A stretch of 12,483 nt of DNA from a virus (Duplodnaviria > Heunggongvirae > Uroviricota > Caudoviricetes), in the IMG/VR virus record IMGVR_UViG_2636415477_000012, one strand, 5' to 3'. The notes under the pieces are model-generated. The model made no database searches. It was given only the letters and a program-made list of their open reading frames with translations, and was not told the DNA's origin. Within the stretch, counting starts at the first letter, position 1. Every line of letters begins with the position of its first letter. Below, in pieces: positions 694 to 12,483 of this stretch. The position numbers and the translations under genes are program-made.

Positions 694-2007
694 ATGGATA
701 AAGTCAAATATCCAACAGGCGTCGAAAACCACGGCGGCACATTACGCATCTGGTTTAATTTTAAAGGTAAACGTGTCAGGGAAAATCTTGGTGTCCCTGA
801 CACTGCCAAGAACAGGAAGATCGCCGGGGAACTGCGGACATCGGTATGTTTTGCCATCCGCACAGGAAGCTTTGATTATGCTGCACAGTTCCCTGACTCC
901 CCCAACCTTCAGGCTTTTGGGGTAAGTAAAAAAGAAATTACGGTGAAGGAACTTGAAGAAAAGTGGCTGGATCTGAAACGAATGGAAATCTCTGCAAATG
1001 CATTCAATCGCTATGAATCCGTTGCAAGAACGATGGTTTCGAAAATTGGAGGCAGTAGACTGGTGTCATCGGTAACCAAAGAGGAATTGCTGTATATCAG
1101 GAAAGATTTGCTAACCGGGTATCAGAATTCAACGAAAAACAAAGCAGCAGCAAAAGGACGGAGCGTCGTTACTGTAAATTATTACATGACGACAATCGCT
1201 GGAATGTTTCAGTTTGCTGCAGATCACGGTTACTTAGAAGCAAATCCCTTCCAGGGAATTAAGCCTCTTAAAAGAGCCAGGGCAGAGCCAGATCCGCTAA
1301 CTCGTGACGAATTTATTCGCCTGATAGATGCTTGCCGACATCAGCAGACGAAAAACCTGTGGTCATTGGCTGTGTACACAGGAATGCGTCACGGTGAACT
1401 GGTCTCCCTGGCCTGGGAAGATATCGATCTGAAGGCAGGAACAATTACCATCAGGCGCAATTATACGAAACTTGGTGAGTTCACTCTACCGAAAACTGAA
1501 GCAAGCACAAACAGGGTTGTGCACCTTATCCAGCCCGCTATCAGTGTCCTGAAAAATCAGGCTGAAATGACAAGACTGGGTAAGCAGTACAACATCAAGG
1601 TGCAACTACGTGAATATGGACGTTCAGTGAACCATGAATGTACTTTCGTGTTTAACCCTCAAGTGGTTAGAAAAAGCGAACAGGTAGGTTTTGTCTACAA
1701 AGTCGATTCTGTAGGTGACTCATGGGAAACAGCCATTAAGCGTGCAGGGATCAGGCATCGAAAGGCATACCAGTCACGACACACTTATGCGTGCTGGTCA
1801 TTATCTGCCGGAGCAAACCCAAGCTTCATTGCCAGCCAGATGGGCCATGCAAGTGCCCAGATGGTATTCAATGTATACGGAGCATGGATGACTGACAGCA
1901 ATGCAGAACAGATCGCAATGCTGAATCAGAAGCTGACAGATTATGTCCCAATGATGCCCCATAGTCACCAAAGTGACACCAGAGGCTTATTAAAATCAGT
2001 AAGTTAA
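694..2007 (+). CDS. int: Tyrosine-type site-specific integrase (lambdoid, Rac IntR-like)
   Basis: 437-aa ORF with GGAGGT Shine-Dalgarno. C-terminal tyrosine-recombinase signature: R in GMRHGEL, H-x-x-R in SRHTYAC, and Y in NVYGAW. N-terminal PTGVE...LRIWFNFKGKR resembles Rac-prophage-type integrases from memory. Confidence 0.9.
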   Translation: MDKVKYPTGVENHGGTLRIWFNFKGKRVRENLGVPDTAKNRKIAGELRTSVCFAIRTGSFDYAAQFPDSPNLQAFGVSKKEITVKELEEKWLDLKRMEISANAFNRYESVARTMVSKIGGSRLVSSVTKEELLYIRKDLLTGYQNSTKNKAAAKGRSVVTVNYYMTTIAGMFQFAADHGYLEANPFQGIKPLKRARAEPDPLTRDEFIRLIDACRHQQTKNLWSLAVYTGMRHGELVSLAWEDIDLKAGTITIRRNYTKLGEFTLPKTEASTNRVVHLIQPAISVLKNQAEMTRLGKQYNIKVQLREYGRSVNHECTFVFNPQVVRKSEQVGFVYKVDSVGDSWETAIKRAGIRHRKAYQSRHTYACWSLSAGANPSFIASQMGHASAQMVFNVYGAWMTDSNAEQIAMLNQKLTDYVPMMPHSHQSDTRGLLKSVS

Positions 2008-2018
2008 TCCTTAATACC

Positions 2019-2435
2019 CGTCATGTTAACTGTGTGGAGGGTAACACCACGCTTTATGCCCTGCCGAAACCCGAGGTTGTCCTGCGCTGGCGTGAGCAGA
2101 CCACAGATGACTTCCGCTTCTGTTTTAAGTTTCCGGCGACCATTTCGCATCAGGCAGCATTACGGCATTGCGATGATTTAGTGACTGAATTTTTGACCCG
2201 CATGTCACCGTTGGCTCCGCGCATTGGACAATACTGGCTGCAACTGCCTGCCACATTCGGCCCACGGGAGCTGCCTGCGCTTTGGCATTTTCTCGATTCT
2301 CTTCCCGGTGAATTTAATTATGGGGTGGAAGTCCGCCATCCACAGTTTTTCGCCAAAGGGGAAGAGGAACAAACGCTTAATCGCGGTTTACATCAGCGCG
2401 GCGTTAATCGGGTGATTTTTATTAGACACGTTTAA
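2019..2435 (+). pseudogene. yecE: Internal fragment of a DUF72-family (yecE-like) chromosomal gene, lacking its 5' end and with a divergent 3' end
   Basis: Translation VEGNTTLYALPKPEVVLRWREQTTDDFRFCFKFPATISH carries the DUF72 motifs (VE.N.TFY..P and FRF.FK....H). No upstream start or N-terminal region is present; after ...GVNRVI (about 2415) the frame runs into AT-rich sequence and stops at 2433-2435. Flanked by int on the left and the serine recombinase on the right. Confidence 0.55.
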
Positions 2436-2459
2436 ATACACTACCTAAAGCGATACAAT
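2431..2459 (+). promoter_or_regulatory. Candidate sigma70-like promoter for the serine recombinase gene
   Basis: TTTAAA (2431-2436), 17-bp spacer, TACAAT (2454-2459), about 30 bp upstream of the ATG at 2488 with GAGGTGG Shine-Dalgarno. Hexamer match only. Confidence 0.25.
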
Positions 2460-2487
2460 CTAGGTATCAGTTTTGAGGTGGTAAACA

Positions 2488-3747
2488 ATGAAACGTGTCA
2501 TTTCTTACATCCGGTTTTCATCTGAGAAGCAATCCCGAGGTGATTCATTACGCCGACAATCTAAGATGGTTACAGATTGGCTTAAGGCTCATCCTGAGTA
2601 CTACCTTGACCAAGACTTATCTTTTCGTGATTTGGGGGTGAGTGGATTCACTGGTAAGCACTTGAAAGGTGGCTTAGGTGACTTCTTAACCGCTATCGAG
2701 AAAGGGCTTGTTAAAGCTGGTGATACGCTCTTGATAGAATCTCTTGACCGTTTGTCACGCCAGAACGTAGACCGAGCAAGTGAGCTATTACGAAACATTC
2801 TTCGCTCTGGTGTAGATGTAGTCACCTTGTCCGATGGTGAACATTACACACGAGAATCTCTTAAAGACCCGTTAGCTCTGATTAAAAGCATTCTGATAAT
2901 GCAGCGGTCGCATGAGGAGAGTTTGAGGAAGTCTGAGCGTATACAAGGTGCATGGAACCGTAAAAAAGAACTCATCTCTGAAGGTATCAAGATTTCTAAA
3001 CGTTGTCCTGCATGGCTTAAGCTTAATGATGACCGTAAAAGCTTCTCTGTGATACCTGAGAAAGTAGAGACTGTGAAGAGGTGCTTTCAGCTACGGTTAG
3101 AGGGCAAATCTATCTGGGAGATTGTCAGGACTCTTAATGATGAAGGTCACCAGACACTTAACCAGTACAAAGCAGGTAAGTTTGGTCAAACCTCAGTGCA
3201 AGACCTTCTGAAGAATCGCTCTGTAATTGGTTACTTCACACCTAAAGGCTGTGAAGAGATTTCAGGTTATTACCCTGCAATTATAGATGAAACAATATTC
3301 TACAAAGTCCAGCAACTATCATATTCTCGTTATGGAAGAAAGCCTGCTTCAGATAAACCATTGAGCGTGAATCTTTTCAAAGGGGTTATCCGTTGTTCTG
3401 AATGTGGTCATGCTCTGATTATCACAGGCTTTAGCGATACAAGAAACGGGATTTATCGTTGTCCTCTTCGTAATGAAAACCGTTGTAGTGCTAAAGGACT
3501 TTCACGTAAGCAAACCGATGGTACATTGCTTACTCTGCTATCTCGTCTTGACCGATTTGATAGCGATACGACGAATATCATAGATATGTTGAGGCTACAC
3601 CGTGAACACATCTCAAGCAATATTGAAAAGCTGGTACAGCTATCACTTGAAATTGAAGATTTGTCAGCTGCGTATTTTCATGAAAGGAGATCACTCAATA
3701 ACTTCCATCGAGATCGGGTAATAACATTTGAACAGATCGCTGAATAA
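2488..3747 (+). CDS. Large serine recombinase (serine integrase), N-terminal ~397 aa native; the last ~22 codons and the stop lie inside the IS21-family left end
   Basis: Resolvase-type catalytic N-terminus VISYIRFSSEKQSRGDSLRRQ (Ser nucleophile), recombinase domain, Cys-rich zinc-ribbon CSECGH...YRCPLRNENRC, then the start of a coiled coil. The ORF continues from 3681 to 3747 through the GATC/AATAAC repeats that form the IS end. Confidence 0.85.
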   Translation: MKRVISYIRFSSEKQSRGDSLRRQSKMVTDWLKAHPEYYLDQDLSFRDLGVSGFTGKHLKGGLGDFLTAIEKGLVKAGDTLLIESLDRLSRQNVDRASELLRNILRSGVDVVTLSDGEHYTRESLKDPLALIKSILIMQRSHEESLRKSERIQGAWNRKKELISEGIKISKRCPAWLKLNDDRKSFSVIPEKVETVKRCFQLRLEGKSIWEIVRTLNDEGHQTLNQYKAGKFGQTSVQDLLKNRSVIGYFTPKGCEEISGYYPAIIDETIFYKVQQLSYSRYGRKPASDKPLSVNLFKGVIRCSECGHALIITGFSDTRNGIYRCPLRNENRCSAKGLSRKQTDGTLLTLLSRLDRFDSDTTNIIDMLRLHREHISSNIEKLVQLSLEIEDLSAAYFHERRSLNNFHRDRVITFEQIAE

Positions 3748-3780
3748 CATCGATGGAGATCACTTTTGACTCATTTTGTT
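3689..3780. repeat. Four phased 23-bp subterminal repeats at the IS left end, each starting with GATC
   Basis: GATC at 3689, 3712, 3735 and 3758 (exact 23-bp spacing). AATAAC at 3697, 3720 and 3743, i.e. in the first three units (same spacing). Unit 1 versus unit 3 match at 18/23 positions. Confidence 0.6.
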
Positions 3781-3861
3781 ATTCAGTGATCTCCATCAAT
3801 GTTATTGGAACTTCACAGGTGTGTTGATCTGTATCTTTTGCCATTCCGGTAAAGGATACCT

Positions 3862-5403
3862 ATGCCAACAGTTCCAATTTCTATGAGAAAACTTAAAGAA
3901 ATTCTTAGGCTTAAATACGGTGTTGGACTCAGCCATCGACAAATTGGTCGTAGTCTTGCAATCTCCCCTTCCGTTGTATCCAGATATGCTAATCGGGCGG
4001 CTCAACTTGGCATAAAGCAGTGGCCCTTACCTACAGGATGGGATGATACAAAACTAAAACATGCGTTCCTTCAGACCCAGGTTAAGATGAAGAAGCACTC
4101 TCTGCCTGACTGGGCTACAGTACACCGGGAACTGCGTAATAAATGCGTGACGCTGCAGCTACTCTGGGAAGAATACTGTGAGCGTAATCCAGGCGGTTTT
4201 TACAGCTATAACCATTACTGCCGGATGTACCGTGAATGGCTCAAAACCACTTCACCATCAATGCGTCAGGTACATAAAGCTGGCGAAAAACTTTTCGTTG
4301 ATTACTGTGGACCTACCGTTGGCGTTACCGACCCTGAGACCGGAGAAATAAGAACTGCTCAGGTCATCGTAGCTGTTCTCGGGGCATCAAGTTACACATG
4401 GGCAGAGGCCACCTGGTCTCAGCAGCTTGAAGACTGGGTGATGAGTCATGTTCGCTGCTTCCAGTGGTTGGGTGGCGTTCCTGAACTTGTTGTTCCGGAC
4501 AATCTGAAAAGCGCCACATCCAGGGCATGTAAGTATGATCCTGACGTTAACCCTACCTACCAGCAGATGCTTGAGCATTATAATGTCGCAGTTTTGCCTG
4601 CGCGGCCACGTAAACCGAAAGATAAAGCCAAAGCTGAAGTTGGCGTTCAGGTTGTTGAACGCTGGATCATGGCCCGAATCAGGCATGAGATCTTCTACAG
4701 CCTTGCATCGCTTAATCAGCGCATTCGGGAGTTGCTGGAAAGACTGAATAACAAAATAATGCAGAAGTTGGGTTATTCACGTGCAGAACTCTTCATCCAG
4801 CTTGATAAACCCGCACTGAAGCCTCTTCCTGAAGCCAGTTACAGTTACACCCTGGTGAAGAAAGTCAGAGTTCATGCCGATTACCACGTGGAAATCGACA
4901 AACATTACTACTCGGTTCCATGTTCGCTGTTAGGCCAGCAACTGGAAGCATGGATCTCCGGAGAACTGGTAAGACTCTTCAATCAGGGGCAGGAGGTTGC
5001 TGTGCACCCGCGCAAGCGTACTTATGGCTACAGTACCCGCAACGAGCACATGCCTGAAGCTCATCGACAGCATGCCACCTGGACGCCAGAGCGTCTTCTG
5101 GAATGGGCGGGGCACATAGGCAGTGAAACTCATAGTTATGTGCTTCATATACTGAACTCTCGTCCACATCCGGAACAAAGCTATCGCTTCTGCCTTGGAC
5201 TCCTGAACCTTCATAAAAAATACAGTAAAGCCAGACTTAATGCAGCATGTGCAAGAGCTCTGAAAACAAAGGTATGGCGTCTGTCAGGTATTAAATCGAT
5301 CCTGGAAAAAGGTCTGGATAAACAACCTGTTCAGGATCCAAAACCAGATCTGTTATCCACGATGGAACACGAAAACGTACGCGGCAGTGAGTATTACCAC
5401 TGA
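3862..5403 (+). CDS. istA: IS21-family transposase IstA
   Basis: 513-aa ORF with N-terminal helix-turn-helix region (LSHRQIGRSLAISPSVVSRY) and DDE-type core segments (LFVDYCG ... VVPDNLKSA ... KAKAE); immediately followed by istB. Confidence 0.9.
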   Translation: MPTVPISMRKLKEILRLKYGVGLSHRQIGRSLAISPSVVSRYANRAAQLGIKQWPLPTGWDDTKLKHAFLQTQVKMKKHSLPDWATVHRELRNKCVTLQLLWEEYCERNPGGFYSYNHYCRMYREWLKTTSPSMRQVHKAGEKLFVDYCGPTVGVTDPETGEIRTAQVIVAVLGASSYTWAEATWSQQLEDWVMSHVRCFQWLGGVPELVVPDNLKSATSRACKYDPDVNPTYQQMLEHYNVAVLPARPRKPKDKAKAEVGVQVVERWIMARIRHEIFYSLASLNQRIRELLERLNNKIMQKLGYSRAELFIQLDKPALKPLPEASYSYTLVKKVRVHADYHVEIDKHYYSVPCSLLGQQLEAWISGELVRLFNQGQEVAVHPRKRTYGYSTRNEHMPEAHRQHATWTPERLLEWAGHIGSETHSYVLHILNSRPHPEQSYRFCLGLLNLHKKYSKARLNAACARALKTKVWRLSGIKSILEKGLDKQPVQDPKPDLLSTMEHENVRGSEYYH

Positions 5404-5414
5404 TACGGGATCCA

Positions 5415-6164
5415 ATGATGAATCATCTTTACGAACAACTGACCGCACTTAAACTCACCGGCTTCCGTGATGCGCTTAAAAAGCAACTTGCTCAGCCGGG
5501 CACATACCAGGAGCTGGGCTTCGAAGAACGCCTGTCATTACTGACAGCAGAAGAACTAACCTGCCGTGAAAACAGGAAGGCAGAGCGTCTGATCAAACAT
5601 GCACGGTTCAGACTTAATGCTGAGTTATCAAAGCTGGATTATCGTAACAATAGAGGGCTGGACAGGGCCCTCATCCGTTCACTCAGTCAGGGAAACTGGT
5701 TAACCCTGAAACAAAATATTTTACTGACCGGGGCCACCGGCAGCGGTAAAACGTTCCTGGCATGTGCACTTGGTCATAATGCCTGCCGACAGGGATACAA
5801 GGTCTACTATTATCGCCTTAAAGCGCTGATGGAACAGTGCTATCAGGGGCATGCTGATGGAAGATACAGCAAACTTTTGACCAGGCTGAATAATAGCGAT
5901 CTGCTGCTTCTGGATGACTGGGGGCTGGAACCTCTCTCATCAGAACAGCGTAGCGACCTGCTGGAAATAGTGGATCTGATGTACCAACGAGGCTCAATCA
6001 TCGTAGTGAGCCAGTTGCCGGTGGAAAACTGGTACAAAATGATCGGAGACTCCACACATGCGGATGCCATCCTAGATCGACTGGTTCATGGCAGTATCAA
6101 GATCGAACTTAAAGGAGAATCAATGCGGAAAATACAATCTCCGTTGACCGAAGGAGATCAGTGA
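5415..6164 (+). CDS. istB: IS21-family ATP-binding helper protein IstB
   Basis: 249-aa ORF with Walker A GATGSGKT and Walker B LLLLDDWG; starts 12 bp after the istA stop. Confidence 0.9.
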   Translation: MMNHLYEQLTALKLTGFRDALKKQLAQPGTYQELGFEERLSLLTAEELTCRENRKAERLIKHARFRLNAELSKLDYRNNRGLDRALIRSLSQGNWLTLKQNILLTGATGSGKTFLACALGHNACRQGYKVYYYRLKALMEQCYQGHADGRYSKLLTRLNNSDLLLLDDWGLEPLSSEQRSDLLEIVDLMYQRGSIIVVSQLPVENWYKMIGDSTHADAILDRLVHGSIKIELKGESMRKIQSPLTEGDQ

Positions 6165-6200
6165 AGGTAATTTAAAAACGGTTCTGTGAAAGTGACACGA

Positions 6201-6237
6201 ACCGATCTCCATCGATGTTACTCACCGATCTCCTTCA
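6201..6237. repeat. IS right terminal inverted repeat with two phased GATC units
   Basis: GATC at 6204 and 6227 (23-bp spacing); the reverse complement matches the left-end units, including the perfect 17-mer gatctccatcgatgtta at 6204-6220. Confidence 0.6.
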
Positions 6238-6243
6238 CGGTAA

Positions 6244-6597
6244 TACGCATCAGCTATTACCAGCAAGCTAAAACAACTAAAGAATGAGCTATCACAGGTT
6301 GATGCGGATATCGAGAAGGAGACACAACGCCTTAAATCTATTGATGTGGGTTGTTTGTCTGATTGTGACTTGACTACAAAGGCGGGAAGGATTGAAGCAC
6401 AACTGATAATCAAAAGTGCTGTTAAAGAGGTCGTTTTAAATACTGCTAAACGTCGCTGTAAAGTGACTTTTCACAATGGTAGAGCAATCACCTTACCAAT
6501 AACAGAAAACCCCTCAGAGGACGTTACAGAGGCTATACAGTCGCTTTCTGAGGTCACTGAGAGGGGTTTAATAGATGTTGATGAGGTTATCATATAG
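6244..6597 (+). pseudogene. Probable C-terminal remnant of the interrupted large serine recombinase (coiled-coil region); has no ATG start
   Basis: Open frame from just after the TAA at 6241-6243 to the TAG at 6595-6597 translates to YASAITSKLKQLKNELSQVDADIEKETQRLKSID...; same strand and same reading-frame phase (position mod 3) as the recombinase; heptad-like charged sequence. The ORF track lists only a GTG-initiated part (6346-6597). Confidence 0.45.
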
Positions 6598-6611: not shown

Positions 6612-7385
6612 TCAGTATCGCTTGTTAGGATTAACAGAATACTTCTTCAAAGTACTACCTGTACCAGCATTATTAAGCACCTTTGAAGCTTGCTCATTAG
6701 CGGCATCTGAGAAGGTGCTTTTTCCGTTCTTAACTCTGACATTTTTACCACAATTGATACGGGCTTGAAGTTGCTCATTAGTAAGTTCACTCGTAGAGCG
6801 ATTATATAGCTCCTGACACATCAACATACCGTTACCTAAGCTTGTCGTAGTGTTCCCTGTATTCTTTTTACTGGTAGCACCACCATCACTTGTGGTAGAA
6901 GTCCTTCCGGTCGCAGCCGAGATATCAGTCTGACCCACAATAGCTTTAAAGTTAATTTCCTGAAAAGTTAATTGGATTCTAAGACCATTGGCAATACCAA
7001 CATCTTTAGAGGCTTTAAAGTTTGTAATAATTGAGTCGTCAATCTTAATACCATCTTTACAGACAACTGAGATAATTTGCTTCTGGTCACGCCAGTTTTC
7101 AAGAGTGTCTATGAAGTTTTCCACCAGCTTATTATCTCTTGAGATAAGGATACTACCGGATTCACCAACCACAACCACACCACTGATTGAAATAGTTCTT
7201 GGTGAACGCATTACATTATCTGTTACAGTCTGCCCTGATTGCATATTTTGAGTGGTAACCATCATAGGGCTGTCAAATTCCATGTTTTCAGTTGCTGATA
7301 GTGACAAGAAATTATCTGGTTGGCCTTGTAGATGGAAGTAAACGCCATCTTTACCACTGTAACGAAGCTGATTAGTGTAAATCAT
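6612..7385 (-). CDS. Hypothetical protein (257 aa) directly downstream of the tape-measure-domain gene; possibly tail-associated
   Basis: ORF-track entry 6612-7406 begins at a TTG. I prefer the in-frame ATG at 7385 (MIYTNQLRY...), preceded by AAGGAG 6 nt upstream. Ser/Thr/Gly-rich C-terminal half. No recognisable catalytic motif. Confidence 0.6.
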
Positions 7386-7460
7386 TAAATTCTCCTTTGA
7401 TTTCAAAGGCTTAGTGTATTTTAATCATTTTTAACCAAGCCTTTGATATATAAGTGTTTT

Positions 7461-7535
7461 CTCTGCTAAGCGTGTTGTACGTAAATTCTATTTTTCAGTG
7501 TGGGTATTAGCTTTACAGATTTCACGTAGCACACG
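7461..7535. repeat. Copy 1 of a ~75-bp conserved intergenic direct repeat, upstream of the 257-aa gene
   Basis: About 90% identical to 9691-9766; the conserved core cgtaaattctatttttcagtgtgg(g/a)tattagctttacagatttca(c/t)gtagcacac is read directly from the sequence. Sits 14 bp after the stop of the 709-aa gene and about 75 bp before the ATG at 7385. Confidence 0.85.
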
Positions 7536-7548
7536 GATATATAAGAAA

Positions 7549-9678
7549 TCATTCTTCCTCTGGATAGCTTGAACTTAAGAGCATATCCTGCGTGAACTGG
7601 TCATTAGCCGATTGACTGAAATTAAAGAAAGCTGGTTCATCCGGTCTAACAGTTGCTTCACCAGTGATATTAACTGACAAGGGCTTCTTAGCTTCTACTG
7701 TTAAAGCATCAACCTTGCGTGATAGTTCACTAATAGTCATTGCAAGTTGAGCATTGCTATTAACCATGTCACCTGTGATAGCTGGTGTAGTTGATTGTGT
7801 GTTATTAACAAGGTTACTCATTGGCTCTTGGAAGTTAGCAATTTTATTAGCTGCACCATTAAACCAGTCAGCGATAGAACTACCAATCTTAGCCCATCCA
7901 TCATTAATTTGGTTTGGTGTAGAATCGCCTTTGTATTCAGGGTTGAAGTTTGTCTCTGTTCCAATACCTGATTGATGTAAGTTCGGATTCTTAGCTGCTT
8001 CAGGGTTTAAATTATCAAGAGCAAAGTTTACCAACTCAGCATAAAGGACAACTCTACCGACTTTACTTAGCGCACCACCTGAAGAACCAGCCTTGCCAGC
8101 TTTAGCTTTATTAACAGCGTCACCGAATGAAGTAACAGCGTTTGCAAGGTTTAACAAGCCTCCTGCTACATTTGCAGCCTTTTGAGCAGTAACAGCTACG
8201 GCAAGCATCTTCAAACCATCAATTAACCCATCAGATAAACCATCAACAATTTTTTTCTGAGTGTCATTTAGTGAACGGTAAGCTAATGTCACCTCATCGA
8301 AGAACGCTCTTACCCTGTAACTGATATCAGTCAGGCTATCCACACCACTTGACATAGAAGTCATGAGACTACCAAGAGATTCACCAAGACTCTTACCGCT
8401 TCCACCTAAACTGTTTAAAAGCGTTGTTAGGCTTCTTGTAAAATCTTGCAGACCATTTTCAGAACCTCTAAAAATATCCGTTAATGAGTTATTCCAGGTA
8501 TTCTTTAAGTTCCCTAACATTGTCTGCGTAGAGTCCTGAATAGCTTTCCAGCCACCTCTGGAATTAATCTGTGAACCAAGTTCTTTAGCAAATTTAGGAA
8601 GTGCATCAGAGGCTTTAACATCACCATTTTTCATCTTATCGAAAAGCTGTTTTTCAGTCAGACCTAAAGCCTTTGCAAATGCCTGAGTAGCACCCGGTAA
8701 AGCTTCAGATAGTTGCCCCTTCAACTCCTCAGCCATCACCTGACCCTTAGAAGCCATCTGTGACACTGCGGTTAATGCTCTTTGAATCTGCTCATCTGAA
8801 CGACCCATTAAACGAGCATAACCTGTAAGGTTTTTAAATAACTCTTCTGACCCTTCAAGACCCATCGTAGTCGTTGCACTTGCACCAAATGAAGCAAATT
8901 GCGCTTGTGTTTCGGTTGTGTCCATACCAGTAATTTTAGTTAAATCTTGAATGAACTTTTTAACCTGTGTACTTTGGTCACCGAATACGAAATCAATACT
9001 TCTTTCCGATGATGCACGCTGTAAACCAACTTCCATTACTCGCTGATAAGCGGATAGTACAGCCTGAAAGCTGATAAATGCACCTGCTGTTTTCACTGCT
9101 ACTGAACTTAAATTATCAAGAGAACTAGCTGCTTTGTCACTATTAATGCTGGTGGATGTATGACCTCTGGCTTTAGCAATTGCTTCTCGTACACTTGAAT
9201 TTAGTTTAGCAAGGGCTTCATTAAATTTTGAATTATCCATTGACCCAGCTTTAGCAGATAGCCCGTAAAACTGACTCTTAATGTATTTCTCGACAATTGG
9301 GTTAAGACCTTTTAGCTTAGACATATTCGCTGAATAAGCTGCTGTGATTGCTCTGTTGCCGCTAATTCGTGGCTGTCTTGGCTGTCTAAGTGGCTTTAAA
9401 GTATCCTCAATTTCCGTTTTAATCTTAAACGCTCTAGTGTTTTTAAGACGCTGCTCAATCTTGTCAAAGGTCTTATTAAACTTCCTTTCAAGTTGCCCTA
9501 AAGAACTTGTCAGATTGCTGTCAAGTTGCTTGGTATCGACCTTAAACGCTCTATTCAAATTACGTTCAATTCTTTGTGCTGACTGCAAAGCTGCCTTTTC
9601 AACTCTTTGCAAGCCCTTAATAACGTTCTCGCTGAAGCCTAGCTCAACGATAAAACTATCAACTGTGAATTTGCTCAT
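7549..9678 (-). CDS. Tape-measure-domain protein (709 aa), phage tail tape-measure-like
   Basis: ATG at 9678 with AAGAGGTGA Shine-Dalgarno and an in-frame stop immediately upstream. Segment ELKGQLSEALPGATQAFAKALGLTEKQLFDKMKNGDVKASDALPKFAKELG matches the pattern of phage tape-measure domains as I recall it. Long helical, Gly/Ser/Ala-rich regions (GSGKSLGESLGSL, AGKAGSSGGALSKVG). Confidence 0.7.
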   Translation of the reverse strand: MSKFTVDSFIVELGFSENVIKGLQRVEKAALQSAQRIERNLNRAFKVDTKQLDSNLTSSLGQLERKFNKTFDKIEQRLKNTRAFKIKTEIEDTLKPLRQPRQPRISGNRAITAAYSANMSKLKGLNPIVEKYIKSQFYGLSAKAGSMDNSKFNEALAKLNSSVREAIAKARGHTSTSINSDKAASSLDNLSSVAVKTAGAFISFQAVLSAYQRVMEVGLQRASSERSIDFVFGDQSTQVKKFIQDLTKITGMDTTETQAQFASFGASATTTMGLEGSEELFKNLTGYARLMGRSDEQIQRALTAVSQMASKGQVMAEELKGQLSEALPGATQAFAKALGLTEKQLFDKMKNGDVKASDALPKFAKELGSQINSRGGWKAIQDSTQTMLGNLKNTWNNSLTDIFRGSENGLQDFTRSLTTLLNSLGGSGKSLGESLGSLMTSMSSGVDSLTDISYRVRAFFDEVTLAYRSLNDTQKKIVDGLSDGLIDGLKMLAVAVTAQKAANVAGGLLNLANAVTSFGDAVNKAKAGKAGSSGGALSKVGRVVLYAELVNFALDNLNPEAAKNPNLHQSGIGTETNFNPEYKGDSTPNQINDGWAKIGSSIADWFNGAANKIANFQEPMSNLVNNTQSTTPAITGDMVNSNAQLAMTISELSRKVDALTVEAKKPLSVNITGEATVRPDEPAFFNFSQSANDQFTQDMLLSSSYPEEE

Positions 9679-9690
9679 TCATATTTTTCA

Positions 9691-9766
9691 CCTCTTTAAG
9701 CGTGAGCTACGTAAATTCTATTTTTCAGTGTGGATATTAGCTTTACAGATTTCATGTAGCACACAT
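9691..9766. repeat. Copy 2 of the ~75-bp conserved intergenic direct repeat, immediately upstream of the tape-measure-domain gene
   Basis: Same orientation as copy 1. Its promoter-distal end supplies the Shine-Dalgarno (cttaaagagg on the - strand) 12 bp before the ATG at 9678. Confidence 0.85.
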
Positions 9767-9768
9767 AC

Positions 9769-9809
9769 AAAAAAAGGAGAAACTACCGATGTCACTCGAT
9801 AATCTCTCC
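9769..9809 (-). terminator. Candidate intrinsic terminator after the 71-aa gene
   Basis: On the - strand: stem GGAGAGA / TTTCTCC (one mismatch; + strand arms 9776-9782 and 9803-9809), ~20-nt loop, followed by seven T (A-run 9769-9775 on +). The loop is large, so it is weak. Confidence 0.35.
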
Positions 9810-9859
9810 CCGTACTATAGATTCGATAGAACCTATCTCATACACCCAACCAATCTTTT

Positions 9860-10075
9860 TTAATGCCTGACAAGATAATGTAGTTCCGTTTCACCTATGA
9901 TTTGAGCATCAGAAGGGATACGGTCAATACACCATTTTGGAATCTTGCGTGTTTTTGGTTTGCGTGAGGTGATAATTTGATGTTTGGTTTTAATTCTTAA
10001 GGCTGGCTTAGTTTGTAACTTTAAGTTTTCACAAACAGACTTAATAGTTTCATAGCGTTCTGTTAAATCAATCAT
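9860..10075 (-). CDS. Hypothetical small basic protein (71 aa)
   Basis: ORF-track entry; ATG at 10075 with GAGGTGA Shine-Dalgarno 4 nt upstream; Lys/Arg-rich; 22 bp after the stop of the upstream gene. Confidence 0.5.
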   Translation of the reverse strand: MIDLTERYETIKSVCENLKLQTKPALRIKTKHQIITSRKPKTRKIPKWCIDRIPSDAQIIGETELHYLVRH

Positions 10076-10097
10076 TCATCACCTCACATATGCATAA

Positions 10098-10802
10098 TTA
10101 AACAGCCTTGCTAAATTCTCGTGGAACACTCAGAAAATCATTGAAGCTGATAATCTGTGCCAACTCTTGACGGTACTCCTTAGCCAGCGCTTGATGGTCA
10201 CTAATCAGCTTAGCCAGTCTTGATTTCAGCAAATTAATCTCATTTTCTCTTGCTTTCATCAGTTTCTCTTTGGCAATTTCTTCAAGCTCAGCTTGTGATT
10301 TATCAGCAACAATTAGAGACAGTCGATGTGGTGCTCTGACAGCTCTTTCGGTGCGAACAACTCTTTGACCTTCTGGTAAATCTGCAATCACTTTACCAAT
10401 CTCTACAGGGTCATACCCCCAACCGTCACGGTCTAGTCGAGAGAAATAAGCATAAGGATTGGTTTGAAGCTCCATCAAAATAGCCATTTCGTCAATTTCG
10501 TCTTCAAGCTTGGACTGAATTTTCTCGTAAACACTTCTCATTGCTTCTTGAGAGTCTTTAATAGCTTGGAAATATCGGCGTTGTAGCTTCAACTTCAAAT
10601 CAAGCTCACATTCCTCATTCATCGAAAAATCAATTTCAACTCTTGGAATCTCGAGTGGTTCTGGTGGAATATATGGACCTTTATTTACTTCGTGTGATTC
10701 CCGCCAAGCTCTATCAAAAGATTCACGCAAAGTTAATTCGTGAATATCAAGTGCACTTGGTTTGTTTTCGATAATCATTTCATGTTCATCACGGATAGAC
10801 AT
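10098..10802 (-). CDS. Hypothetical acidic coiled-coil protein (234 aa)
   Basis: ORF-track entry; ATG at 10802 with GAGGAAAA Shine-Dalgarno; Glu/Asp-rich helical sequence; no recognisable motif. Confidence 0.65.
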   Translation of the reverse strand: MSIRDEHEMIIENKPSALDIHELTLRESFDRAWRESHEVNKGPYIPPEPLEIPRVEIDFSMNEECELDLKLKLQRRYFQAIKDSQEAMRSVYEKIQSKLEDEIDEMAILMELQTNPYAYFSRLDRDGWGYDPVEIGKVIADLPEGQRVVRTERAVRAPHRLSLIVADKSQAELEEIAKEKLMKARENEINLLKSRLAKLISDHQALAKEYRQELAQIISFNDFLSVPREFSKAV

Positions 10803-10919
10803 TATTATTTTTCCTCTTCTAAGATAATTTATGTTTCAGTTTTTAAAAAGCACACCTGACAGCCTACGAACTTAGAAGAGACTTAAAAGGCGTTTGCCAA
10901 GTATGCTTTTTAAAAGCTG

Positions 10920-10964
10920 AAAAAAGCCCTAAACATAGGTTCATCCTTATCTGTAAAGGGCTTT
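10920..10964 (-). terminator. Hairpin followed by a T-run (terminator-like or structured RNA)
   Basis: Stem AAAGCCCT (10923-10930) / AGGGCTTT (10957-10964), 26-nt loop; on the - strand the 3' arm is followed by TTT then CAGC (run of six T counting the stem). Confidence 0.3.
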
Positions 10965-11024
10965 GAAGGTTTGCTTATAACGTTAACGAAGTTTCAGGAA
11001 AAACTTTCTTTAAAAGCTCTGTTT

Positions 11025-11062
11025 AAAAACTCTTAAAGAAAGCCCTAACTCATGATTAGGGC
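11025..11062 (-). terminator. Candidate intrinsic terminator downstream of the HNH/HTH/107-aa operon
   Basis: Stem GCCCTAA (11042-11048) / TTAGGGC (11056-11062), 7-nt loop; on the - strand it is followed by TTTCTTTAAGAGTTTTT. Confidence 0.4.
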
Positions 11063-11286
11063 AAAGCTGTAAGGGTTCAATAATGAATGATTAAGCACTT
11101 TTTGATATATAGCCTATCTAGTGGGCTAAATAGGCCATGTAGCGAAAAGCATTGCACCTTTCAGAATAACTATCCCTAGATGTAGATGGAATTGTTGAAA
11201 GAAATAAGAGAGAATTGCTCTCCCATACTTAAAATTATGACATATTTAAGGTTATTTGTCAACAGCTTTTTAACAGATTGGTAACA

Positions 11287-11364
11287 TTAATTCTTATTTA
11301 CCGTGTTACCTACCCAGCAACCAACAAATAAACCCAAAGCTGTCCAAGCAATTATTAAGCCCAT
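11287..11364 (-). CDS. Possible 25-aa hydrophobic peptide (MGLIIAWTALGLFVGCWVGNTVNKN)
   Basis: I translated it by hand. Its ATG overlaps the TAA stop of the upstream 107-aa gene (TAATG). Single predicted transmembrane-like stretch. No other support. Confidence 0.25.
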   Translation of the reverse strand: MGLIIAWTALGLFVGCWVGNTVNKN

Positions 11365-11687
11365 TAATGCACCACCTTCGAATCCGTAACCAAAATATTG
11401 TCAGCGTACAAAATTGCTATAGCTGCCTTGAGATATTTTTCAGGGCTAACGCTGTATTTGTTCGTTTGCTCGATAACCAATCTTTTCATGTTGCTGTCTT
11501 TAATTGGTAGCATCATTCGAGGCTCGTTAAACTCCACCGAGTGAATAAAGTCAGAGATGCTTTCCGCATTATCAGCCATTAACTCTAACAACTTATCAAA
11601 GTCAATGCTAACACCTACATCAGTGAAAGCCTGAATCATCATAGCGGTGTCGTTATCAACGAAAATTTGCATTGGGTGATTATTCAT
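11364..11687 (-). CDS. Hypothetical acidic protein (107 aa)
   Basis: ORF-track entry; ATG at 11687 with AGAGGAA Shine-Dalgarno about 8 nt upstream. Confidence 0.6.
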   Translation of the reverse strand: MNNHPMQIFVDNDTAMMIQAFTDVGVSIDFDKLLELMADNAESISDFIHSVEFNEPRMMLPIKDSNMKRLVIEQTNKYSVSPEKYLKAAIAILYADNILVTDSKVVH

Positions 11688-11824: not shown

Positions 11825-12211
11825 TTACACAGACGCTTTAATCTTGTAGTATTGACTACGTGATAAGCCGTATTTCTCAGAAATATAACTTTGTGATTGT
11901 CCTTTGGTGATTGCATCAATGATTAAATCTTTATTGTATCTGTTGCCATTGGTTTTGTGCTTGTCACCACTTTTAATAGAGTTGAAATTCTCAATTAATT
12001 TAATGGCGTCTTTAAGGTCGTCTTCGTAAGCATAATCAAAACCCCTGATAAACTCGAAATCACCATTATCTTTTTGTGCTTCAGCCCAGATATCAAATCT
12101 TGAGGCTAATTGCTGGTGGGTAAACTTGGGTTTATTGGTTTGTGTTACGTCCCTCCAGATTCTACCGTCAAATCTTACCAAATGGTCACGATGTTTATAA
12201 AAGTCATACAT
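11825..12211 (-). CDS. Hypothetical protein (128 aa from the ATG at 12211) with a C-terminal helix-turn-helix
   Basis: The ORF-track entry starts at a TTG (12244). I prefer the ATG at 12209-12211, which overlaps the upstream TAA (TAATG) and has GGAGG 5 nt upstream. C-terminal DLIIDAITKGQSQSYISEKYGLSRSQYYKIK resembles resolvase/transposase-type helix-turn-helix. Confidence 0.6.
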   Translation of the reverse strand: MYDFYKHRDHLVRFDGRIWRDVTQTNKPKFTHQQLASRFDIWAEAQKDNGDFEFIRGFDYAYEDDLKDAIKLIENFNSIKSGDKHKTNGNRYNKDLIIDAITKGQSQSYISEKYGLSRSQYYKIKASV

Positions 12212-12483
12212 TAAACCTCCTGTAGTAAGTTGTTTGGGTGGCAATTTCTTTTATTACCATCCTTGAAGATAATCTTTTTAGTTGCCTGAACTTCATGATG
12301 CAAAAACCAGATGACATACTTCAGATAATAATCACGAGTGCCATAACGAATCATTGGATTACCGTAAGCATCATCTCTTGTCTTAACCTCTCCGCCATCA
12401 ATCCATTCAAGCATTCCTGTTTCGTAATTAATCATGAAGTAAGTTGCAAAGAACCGTTTAATATCATCTCGCCATTGCTTCAT
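12211..12483 (-). CDS. HNH-endonuclease-like protein (HNH_3-type pattern); possibly 5'-partial at the window edge
   Basis: YGTRDYYLKYVIWFLHHE...IIFKDGNKRNCHPNNLL resembles the H...DGNK.NN..NL pattern of phage HNH endonucleases, but the usual His before DGN is replaced (FKD), so it may be degenerate. ORF starts at an ATG at the last base of the window. Confidence 0.45.
   Translation of the reverse strand: MKQWRDDIKRFFATYFMINYETGMLEWIDGGEVKTRDDAYGNPMIRYGTRDYYLKYVIWFLHHEVQATKKIIFKDGNKRNCHPNNLLQEV

Follow-up and report, generated by a model that had tools for sequence, protein, structure and literature searches.

To our knowledge, only one system of virulent-phage satellites has been worked out in depth, the PLEs and their helper ICP1 in Vibrio, and manipulation of a tail by a satellite-encoded tape measure protein (TMP) was, as far as we know, first shown in 2026. 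PLEs possess a large serine recombinase and have the lytic myovirus ICP1 as helper; PLE11, PLE1 and PLE4 encode a tail assembly chaperone (TAC), a TMP and, in some, the baseplate hub protein BhuB, and they build chimeric tails that exclude the helper TMP and are shorter, while PLE11 also blocks helper tail assembly (Nature 2026, PMC12987554). In E. coli, Barth, Dunham and Seed (2023) described 224 putative satellites of 10-15 kb belonging to Stephanstirmvirinae-type phages (Inny, Muut, Mt1B1_P17), with an integrase, RepA_N, a major capsid protein, a decoration protein, a TMP and a baseplate gene (PMC10448857). In the structure of the phage Bas63, the C-terminal 25 residues of the TMP touch the hub and puncture apparatus, and the tail-tube initiator (TI) forms a hexamer which bridges between the trimeric hub and the six-fold tube (PMC12609058). 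In this study, we analysed a stretch of 12,483 nt (IMG/VR record IMGVR_UViG_2636415477_000012, hereafter the window), which contains the larger part of an island integrated in yecE with a TMP gene and a TI gene of its own, and we propose as the probable reading, by analogy, that this ~11.5-kb element is a PLE-like satellite of Ounavirinae which would insert its own TMP and TI into the tails of its helper.

The tape measure and tube initiator genes

An earlier note on this DNA had taken the 709-aa open reading frame (ORF) for a tape measure protein, and this is confirmed by matches to Pfam TMP_3 (PF20155; 63.6 bits against a cut-off of 41), PHROG 4036 (E = 4e-84) and the tape measure gp017 of Bas63 (PDB 9ndy_F; E = 2.6e-69). 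The 257-aa product of the adjoining gene matches Pfam Dit_like (PF21821; E = 3.5e-19), PHROG 3721 (E = 2e-127) and the tube initiator gp018 of Bas63 (PDB 9ndy_A; E = 1.4e-113 over residues 12-263), and shares 69% identity with Felixounavirus garuso_119, the homologue of Bas63 gp18. The number of morphogenesis genes in the module thus rises from one to two, and the view that the TMP gene is flanked only by small or unrecognisable genes is right for the 234-aa and 71-aa proteins, for which no homologues were detected outside the island family, and wrong for the 257-aa protein. The coordinates and sizes read earlier for the minus-strand ORFs are correct, including the 257 aa: the ORF at 6612-7406 gives 264 aa from a TTG codon, but the real start is ATG 7385, with the Shine-Dalgarno site AAAGGAGA ahead of it.

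At the DNA level the TI gene is ~80-83% identical to Ounavirinae phages, and the ~300 phage records matched by TI in tblastn are nearly all Felixounavirus, Suspvirus, Mooglevirus or Erwinia relatives, that is, Ounavirinae. Judged by sequence, the closest phage relatives of TMP and TI are the Ounavirinae, Felix O1-like virulent myoviruses, and a whole-genome comparison of the island proteins with Felixounavirus returned matches from TMP and TI only. The two proteins are direct homologues of Felixounavirus gp17 and gp18 (PDB 9NDY; PMC12609058), with the same gene order, TMP then TI, and with conserved TMP termini and TI core. Both proteins have their place on the baseplate hub, where they start the polymerisation of the tube and gauge it. 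In the phage, the two genes abut within a complete tail operon (sheath, tube, TACs, hub and wedges), whereas the island pair is split by a structured spacer of 163 nt, preceded by unrelated genes and integrated in a chromosome.

The identity between island and phage is distributed unevenly along both proteins. Against the Felixounavirus TMP (735 aa), the island TMP is ~31% identical overall and its body is ~70% diverged, while the first 40 aa are ~80% identical, the last 17 aa 70% identical and the last 10 aa (LLSSSYPEEE) the same as in the phage. The TI core, residues ~37-190 in the numbering of the 264-aa ORF, is ~85-90% identical to the phage as judged by eye, and the C-terminal extension is more diverged. 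Thus the surfaces for plugging into a Felix O1-type baseplate appear to have been kept while the TMP body diverged, and by analogy with the Bas63 structure the C-terminal tip of the island TMP is a predicted hub-docking site. Island TMPs measure 679-725 aa against 735-746 aa in the phages, which makes them 10-67 aa shorter.

TMP and TI are also the most constant feature across the island family, which is mosaic: the TMPs are 42-93% identical and the TIs 65-99% identical among islands, and the TMPs fall into two N-terminal and three to four C-terminal types that occur in swapped combinations. The ratio of nonsynonymous to synonymous substitution rates (dN/dS) is 0.10-0.35 for the TI, TMP, 234-aa and 71-aa genes; all four module genes are therefore under purifying selection and not decaying.

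The module stands without the rest of a virion. Pfam, PHROGs and PADLOC detected no terminase, portal, capsid, tube, sheath or further baseplate genes in the window or in the remainder of the island in relatives, in agreement with the earlier remark that terminase, portal, capsid and tail-tube genes are lacking. In the closest relatives, the DNA that corresponds to the region beyond position 12,483 consists of ~4 kb of small ORFs and non-coding DNA followed by the 3' part of yecE, and head or tail genes are absent there as well.

Comparison with described satellites

Satellites of the PLE type measure ~18 kb, the present island ~11.5 kb. Like the Vibrio PLEs, it is a small island with a large serine recombinase, strictly virulent myovirus relatives and a majority of genes of unknown function. 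It likewise carries a partial tail pathway that consists of a strongly diverged TMP of its own and one hub-proximal component closer to the helper, the identity to the helper being 20% for the TMP and 41% for BhuB in PLE, and 31% for the TMP and 69% for TI in the island; in both, the satellite TMP is shorter than that of the helper and TMP types are modular between variants. On the other hand, the host family and the helper family are different, the island component is a tube initiator and that of PLE a hub protein, the island has no recognisable TAC, and it is known here from sequence alone. We identified no island genes comparable to TcaP (capsid remodelling), NixI (nuclease) and LidI (lysis) of PLE. 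By the published description of PLE, the island would work like a PLE-type satellite and would be, at most, its analogue in an Escherichia host.

The elements of Barth et al. share with the island the host species, the size class, modular replication modules and, in a subset, serine recombinases. One of them has an arrangement of the same kind, with the integrase and, on the opposite strand, baseplate/TI, TMP, a small ORF and a larger ORF (listed from the integrase outwards, thus against the direction of transcription), after which come ~2 kb of non-coding DNA. Their 'baseplate protein' is a homologue, 57-60% identical, of the tube initiator of Stephanstirmvirinae, which are virulent myoviruses. 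However, neither tblastn nor blastn gave a significant match between the island, proteins and DNA, and the NGF1 element of Barth et al., and no capsid protein, decoration protein or RepA_N was found in the island by Pfam or PHROGs. The attachment (att) sites are tRNA genes or lysR there and yecE, tonB or wrbA here, the helper is of Stephanstirmvirinae there and presumably of Ounavirinae here, and a capsid gene occupies there the position of the 234-aa helical protein of the island. We claim membership neither in the family of Barth et al. nor in PLE.

cfPICI, PICI and P4-like satellites are integrated, small and helper-dependent in concept, as the island is, but their helpers are temperate while the presumed helper of the island is virulent, and no homologues of alpA, pri-rep, capsid, terminase, sid, psu or delta were detected in the island by Pfam or PHROGs. 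We found no paper that links a satellite to Felix O1 or the Ounavirinae, or that cites the RefSeq protein accessions of the island.

Architecture, mobility and control of the island

The island in yecE spans 11,586 bp in E. coli JML285 and 11,549 bp in MS1718, with TGATTTT as att core. In both strains the serine recombinase lies at one end, and small ORFs with 1.7-2.7 kb of non-coding DNA make up the other. Matches to the query occur in 488 of 5426 complete E. coli genomes (~9%). Related islands with different large serine recombinases reside at tonB (tonB-yciI) and wrbA in E. coli, and further relatives were found in E. albertii, Shigella, Citrobacter freundii and metagenomes. Once insertion sequence (IS) elements are subtracted, all copies have a net size of ~11.3-11.7 kb. 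The constant core comprises, in gene order, the 107-aa gene, promoter and leader, the 234-aa gene, the 71-aa gene, TMP and TI. A protein resembling replication initiators (HTH_36; PHROG 8102/678) is encoded in the wrbA-type, Citrobacter and excised variants, and in its place the yecE-type relatives have, beyond the window, a 184-aa ORF without assignment. The features of the window are collected in Table 1.

Table 1. Positions of genes and other elements along the window
Feature	Position	Strand	Details
Tyrosine integrase (Arm-DNA-bind_2), terminal part of lambdoid prophage	694-2007	+	ORF map and hidden Markov model scans
yecE nt 74-479	2014-2419	+	
attL, left island end	2420-2487	+	shared core TGATTTT = yecE nt 473-479
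Large serine recombinase (island integrase), ~507 aa if intact	2488-6597	+	pieces 2488-3669 and 6250-6597
IS21-like (ISEc12-family) element inside recombinase gene	~3670-6249		istA 3862-5403, istB 5415-6164
Tail-tube initiator (TI, Dit_like), 257 aa from ATG 7385	6612-7385	-	
Hairpin of 13 bp right upstream of TI Shine-Dalgarno site	7395-7454	-	
Structured spacer between TMP and TI	7386-7548	-	163 nt
68-nt stem-loop element, copy ahead of TI	7467-7534	-	
Tape measure protein (TMP), 709 aa	7549-9678	-	
68-nt stem-loop element, second copy, directly upstream of TMP ribosome-binding site	9697-9764	-	
Intrinsic-terminator-like hairpin with T-run, between 71-aa gene and TMP gene	9774-9811	-	
71-aa basic protein, just upstream of TMP	9860-10075	-	
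234-aa acidic protein	10098-10802	-	
Conserved non-coding module leader	10803-11363	-	561 nt
107-aa acidic protein	11364-11687	-	
128-aa protein, ATG 12211, weak C-terminal helix-turn-helix	11825-12211	-	varies among islands
90-aa HNH_3 endonuclease	12211-12483	-	variable accessory gene

The HNH_3 gene is complete, its start codon being the final base triplet of the window, and the start of the 128-aa gene overlaps the HNH stop codon as ATGA. Of 13 other island copies compared, 12 encode the 107-aa protein with 69-89% identity, and locus L016 (L numbers are our labels for loci) has a match of only 25%. yecE is doubly occupied in the window: the lambdoid prophage ends at yecE nt 74, and the island follows ~400 nt further on, at yecE nt 473-479. 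Like yecE, wrbA is a classical integration site of Shiga toxin (Stx) phages. The far end of the islands is variable and includes genes for an HNH-AP2 homing-endonuclease-like protein, a DNA methylase fragment, a Dam methylase and a small resolvase (L005 21915-23211; L023 5845-6507), and in the JML285 island a 306-aa ORF; these accessory genes are possible cargo or defence genes.

The two small proteins encoded ahead of TMP were followed in sequence and structure. The 234-aa protein is specific to the island family (Escherichia, Shigella, Citrobacter), with nothing significant in Pfam, PHROGs or PADLOC or in a profile search of PDB sequences, and its AlphaFold 2 (AF2) model consists mostly of long helices at a predicted local distance difference test (pLDDT) score of 55.6, a quality too poor for a fold search. 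The idea that it might be a chaperone-like remnant found no support, as hhalign against the Ounavirinae TAC returned a probability of 0.7%; we regard the protein as a candidate assembly or scaffold factor. In some islands an unrelated 236-aa gene with 28% identity stands in its place (L005 17707-18417, L029 7955-8665), which RefSeq labels 'transposase' without Pfam support, and this replacement points to cassette exchange at that position. The AF2 model of the 71-aa protein (pLDDT 76) begins with a helix, continues with a basic linker and ends in a small beta-rich domain, and Foldseek gave no match with E < 0.1 in PDB and BFVD.

The island family is excision-competent. From attL and attR we predicted the attP junction, which is flanked by the inverted repeat GTGTATTTA...TAAATACAC, and a single copy of the junction 26-mer was met in the metagenome collection, at 2945-2970 of an 11,473-nt contig without yecE sequence (L029, ERZ1090866 NODE_760). 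On maps of related islands the two ends of this contig lie side by side, and one end carries a Nextera adapter; the contig thus represents a whole island in circular permutation, present as a circle or as a concatemer of ~11.43 kb. The excised copy is a relative of the window island and not the window copy itself, and its excision is presumed to depend on a phage. Another metagenome contig (L020) was considered as a circle and rejected, being an integrated copy adjoining tonB. In the window, the recombinase gene is split by the IS21-like element, at whose junction ~6 nt are duplicated; this copy has therefore probably lost excision and is probably fixed in place with its tail module intact. 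IS421, IS66 or IS2 insertions are present in other island copies.

Beyond the window, four intergenic elements of Felixounavirus (garuso 5651-5740, 49667-49739, 50067-50115 and 57722-57777) have 40-90-nt matches in the non-coding DNA of various islands, located at L001 22765-22814 and 23239-23287, L011 5860-6449, L007 5954-6096 and L023 5644-5784. One of the elements is single-copy, with the core GATTTTTAACGTGGCTACNACNATCCACCCATACC followed by ACC-periodic repeats, and is conserved in the non-coding DNA of 155 Ounavirinae phage records; a hairpin element has the invariant loop GGGAACGATAAGA and compensatory changes in the stem; the remaining two are AT-rich. These sequences may have come from the helper and are candidates for an origin, a packaging site or regulatory sites. 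The non-coding region of JML285 (L001 22206-22374) also includes a tandem duplication of ~95 bp, with two copies 76-85% identical, which could be iterons of an origin.

Expression of the module seems to be controlled in the leader and between the genes. A near-consensus sigma-70 promoter on the minus strand (11262-11234; 11 of 12 matches plus TG) hardly varies among islands, that of Citrobacter included. 3' of it lie the 5' hairpin of the leader, with compensatory changes (11226-11204), the leader motif GAAAGGTGCAATGCTTTTCG and terminator-like hairpins (e.g. 11062-11042); the motif is nearly invariant, 11 of its 20 positions being strictly so across the aligned islands, and the terminator-like hairpin ahead of TMP is kept in all islands inspected. 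With a constitutive promoter, terminators in the leader and a terminator before TMP, expression therefore probably needs infection-dependent read-through, and the arrangement suggests an operon silenced by termination until infection permits read-through, or else a small RNA (sRNA). Felix O1 itself uses the host RNA polymerase and has many internal terminators with an unexplained bypass (PMC3185647). From this promoter, the interval 11030-11262 (minus strand) would yield a conserved structured RNA of ~190 nt with the 5' hairpin, the motif and a terminator at its end, a candidate sRNA (cf. SviR of PLE) or antitermination leader; Rfam returned no family match within the island.

The two 68-nt stem-loop copies are direct repeats with 93% identity, and are the conserved upstream element already noticed on first inspection, here placed before both TMP and TI. 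The cassette has a 12-bp stem (GCTACGTGAAAT... / ...ATTTCACGTAGC) and a loop of ~23-27 nt, and its variants precede TMP and/or TI in L005-L010, L015, L016 and L020-L022. The spacer between TMP and TI is strongly structured, with a z-score of -5.7 for its minimum free energy, whereas the phage has no spacer. Promoter, leader motif and 68-nt element were also considered as copied phage promoters; none of them occurs in the phage genome, and the idea was rejected.

Satellite, defence island or remnant

Our best reading is that the element has a satellite role, a defence island role, or both. Features by which satellites are recognised were found: an integrase of its own with att sites, a partial gene set with helper-like morphogenesis genes, and an extrachromosomal copy of a relative. 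The earlier suggestion of a compact element that reuses a tape measure protein in a non-canonical context is supported and can be made more specific, the satellite of Felix O1-like phages being the probable case, with a helper dependence that we infer; the context agrees with the one demonstrated by experiment for the Vibrio PLEs. In the course that we propose by analogy with the Vibrio PLEs, infection by the helper would cause the island to excise through its serine recombinase and to replicate, for which some relatives have an initiator, all those examined a conserved non-coding region and several the copies of helper elements. The operon of the 234-aa, 71-aa, TMP and TI genes would then be expressed, the island TMP may dock in the helper hub by its phage-identical C-terminal tip, and a hexamer of the island TI, with its tube-like core almost as in the phage, may nucleate the helper tube and sheath. 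The resulting chimeric tails might favour island particles, and/or spoil the tail assembly of the helper as a population-level defence. Hints on packaging and transfer are only indirect, namely the conserved net size of ~11.5 kb and the copied helper intergenic elements.

Several points weigh against the satellite proposal. Neither a packaging function (small terminase, pac or cos site) nor a factor for capsid size was identified, and the 234-aa and 71-aa proteins are without assignable function after sequence and structure searches. In a check for terminal-repeat or pac position, the phage-like elements showed no constant placement relative to the termini of phage records, and the leader motif and the 68-nt element are absent from the phage genome. 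The sample behind L029 may be a virome or a cellular one, and a search of IMG/VR gave no contig bearing attP. Many copies, including that of the window, carry IS insertions, and retention of the module where the integrase no longer works agrees with a defence role of benefit to the host no less well than with transfer. The tie between the island and a phage, with induction, packaging and transfer, is deduced throughout and not drawn from experiment.

The main rival is a pure anti-phage defence island, in which TMP and TI would act as dominant-negative decoys that dock by their conserved termini in Felix O1-type hubs and leave the phage with non-functional or tail-less progeny; there would be no packaging, and the island would spread through its recombinase and other routes only. 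Conserved docking termini on a diverged TMP body are what a poisoning subunit needs, the intact module is retained where the integrase is disrupted, the strong diversification of TMP fits an arms race, and interference with tail assembly is an established strategy on mobile elements (PMC11364771; Rta of PLE11, PMC12987554). However, PADLOC recognised no known defence gene, its sole match being a weak one of coiled-coil type between TMP and ZorA (E = 1.9e-4), and defence alone leaves unexplained the net size of ~11.5 kb maintained despite differing genes and sites, the replication initiators and the copied helper cis-elements. Both roles coexist in PLE, which makes this rival a partial and non-exclusive one; as the whole explanation a decoy role is rather unlikely, and it is compatible with the satellite reading.

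Alternatively, the island might be an integrative element, possibly plasmid-like or conjugatively mobilised, in which TMP and TI are passengers, perhaps exapted, with no role in a tail. Integrase, replication initiator and excision would suit any integrative mobilisable element, and most island genes are of unknown function, but TMP and TI are the most constant genes of the family, with hub-contact residues selectively conserved while the remaining TMP diverges, the copied phage intergenic elements point to interaction with a phage, and Pfam detected no relaxase, origin of transfer (oriT) or conjugation gene; we hold this explanation to be improbable. A tailed-prophage remnant that lost its other head and tail genes by deletion, or the degraded siphovirus tail region of the earlier note, is very improbable and a decayed prophage is effectively excluded. 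In its favour, a tail-gene pair adjoins an integrase, IS elements are present, and yecE also contains, directly left of the island, a lambdoid prophage. However, this prophage was inserted separately, at yecE nt 74; the sole phage relatives are virulent Ounavirinae myoviruses without a prophage state; the same architecture and size recur across several genera, three sites and hundreds of genomes; the module genes are under purifying selection; and an excised complete copy of the same size exists.

Returning to the satellite of Felix O1-like phages, we give about an even chance to the fuller proposal of an undescribed satellite family of ~11.5 kb in ~1/11 of E. coli genomes, with chimeric tails in which the island TMP and TI take the place of those of the helper, helper cis-elements copied to serve replication or packaging, and a tail operon gated by a conserved structured leader RNA. 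If true, it would be an enterobacterial counterpart of Vibrio PLE-ICP1 that is testable directly in E. coli K-12 with the BASEL phage Bas63, and since the baseplate of the presumed helper has been solved in Bas63, how a foreign TMP and TI enter a helper baseplate could be tested as well. Pairs annotated in RefSeq as 'tape measure protein / phage baseplate protein' should not be taken for prophage remnants. Felix O1-like phages are used in Salmonella typing, biocontrol and therapy, and if the island blocks or hijacks phages of this type, its presence could predict failure of biocontrol or therapy.

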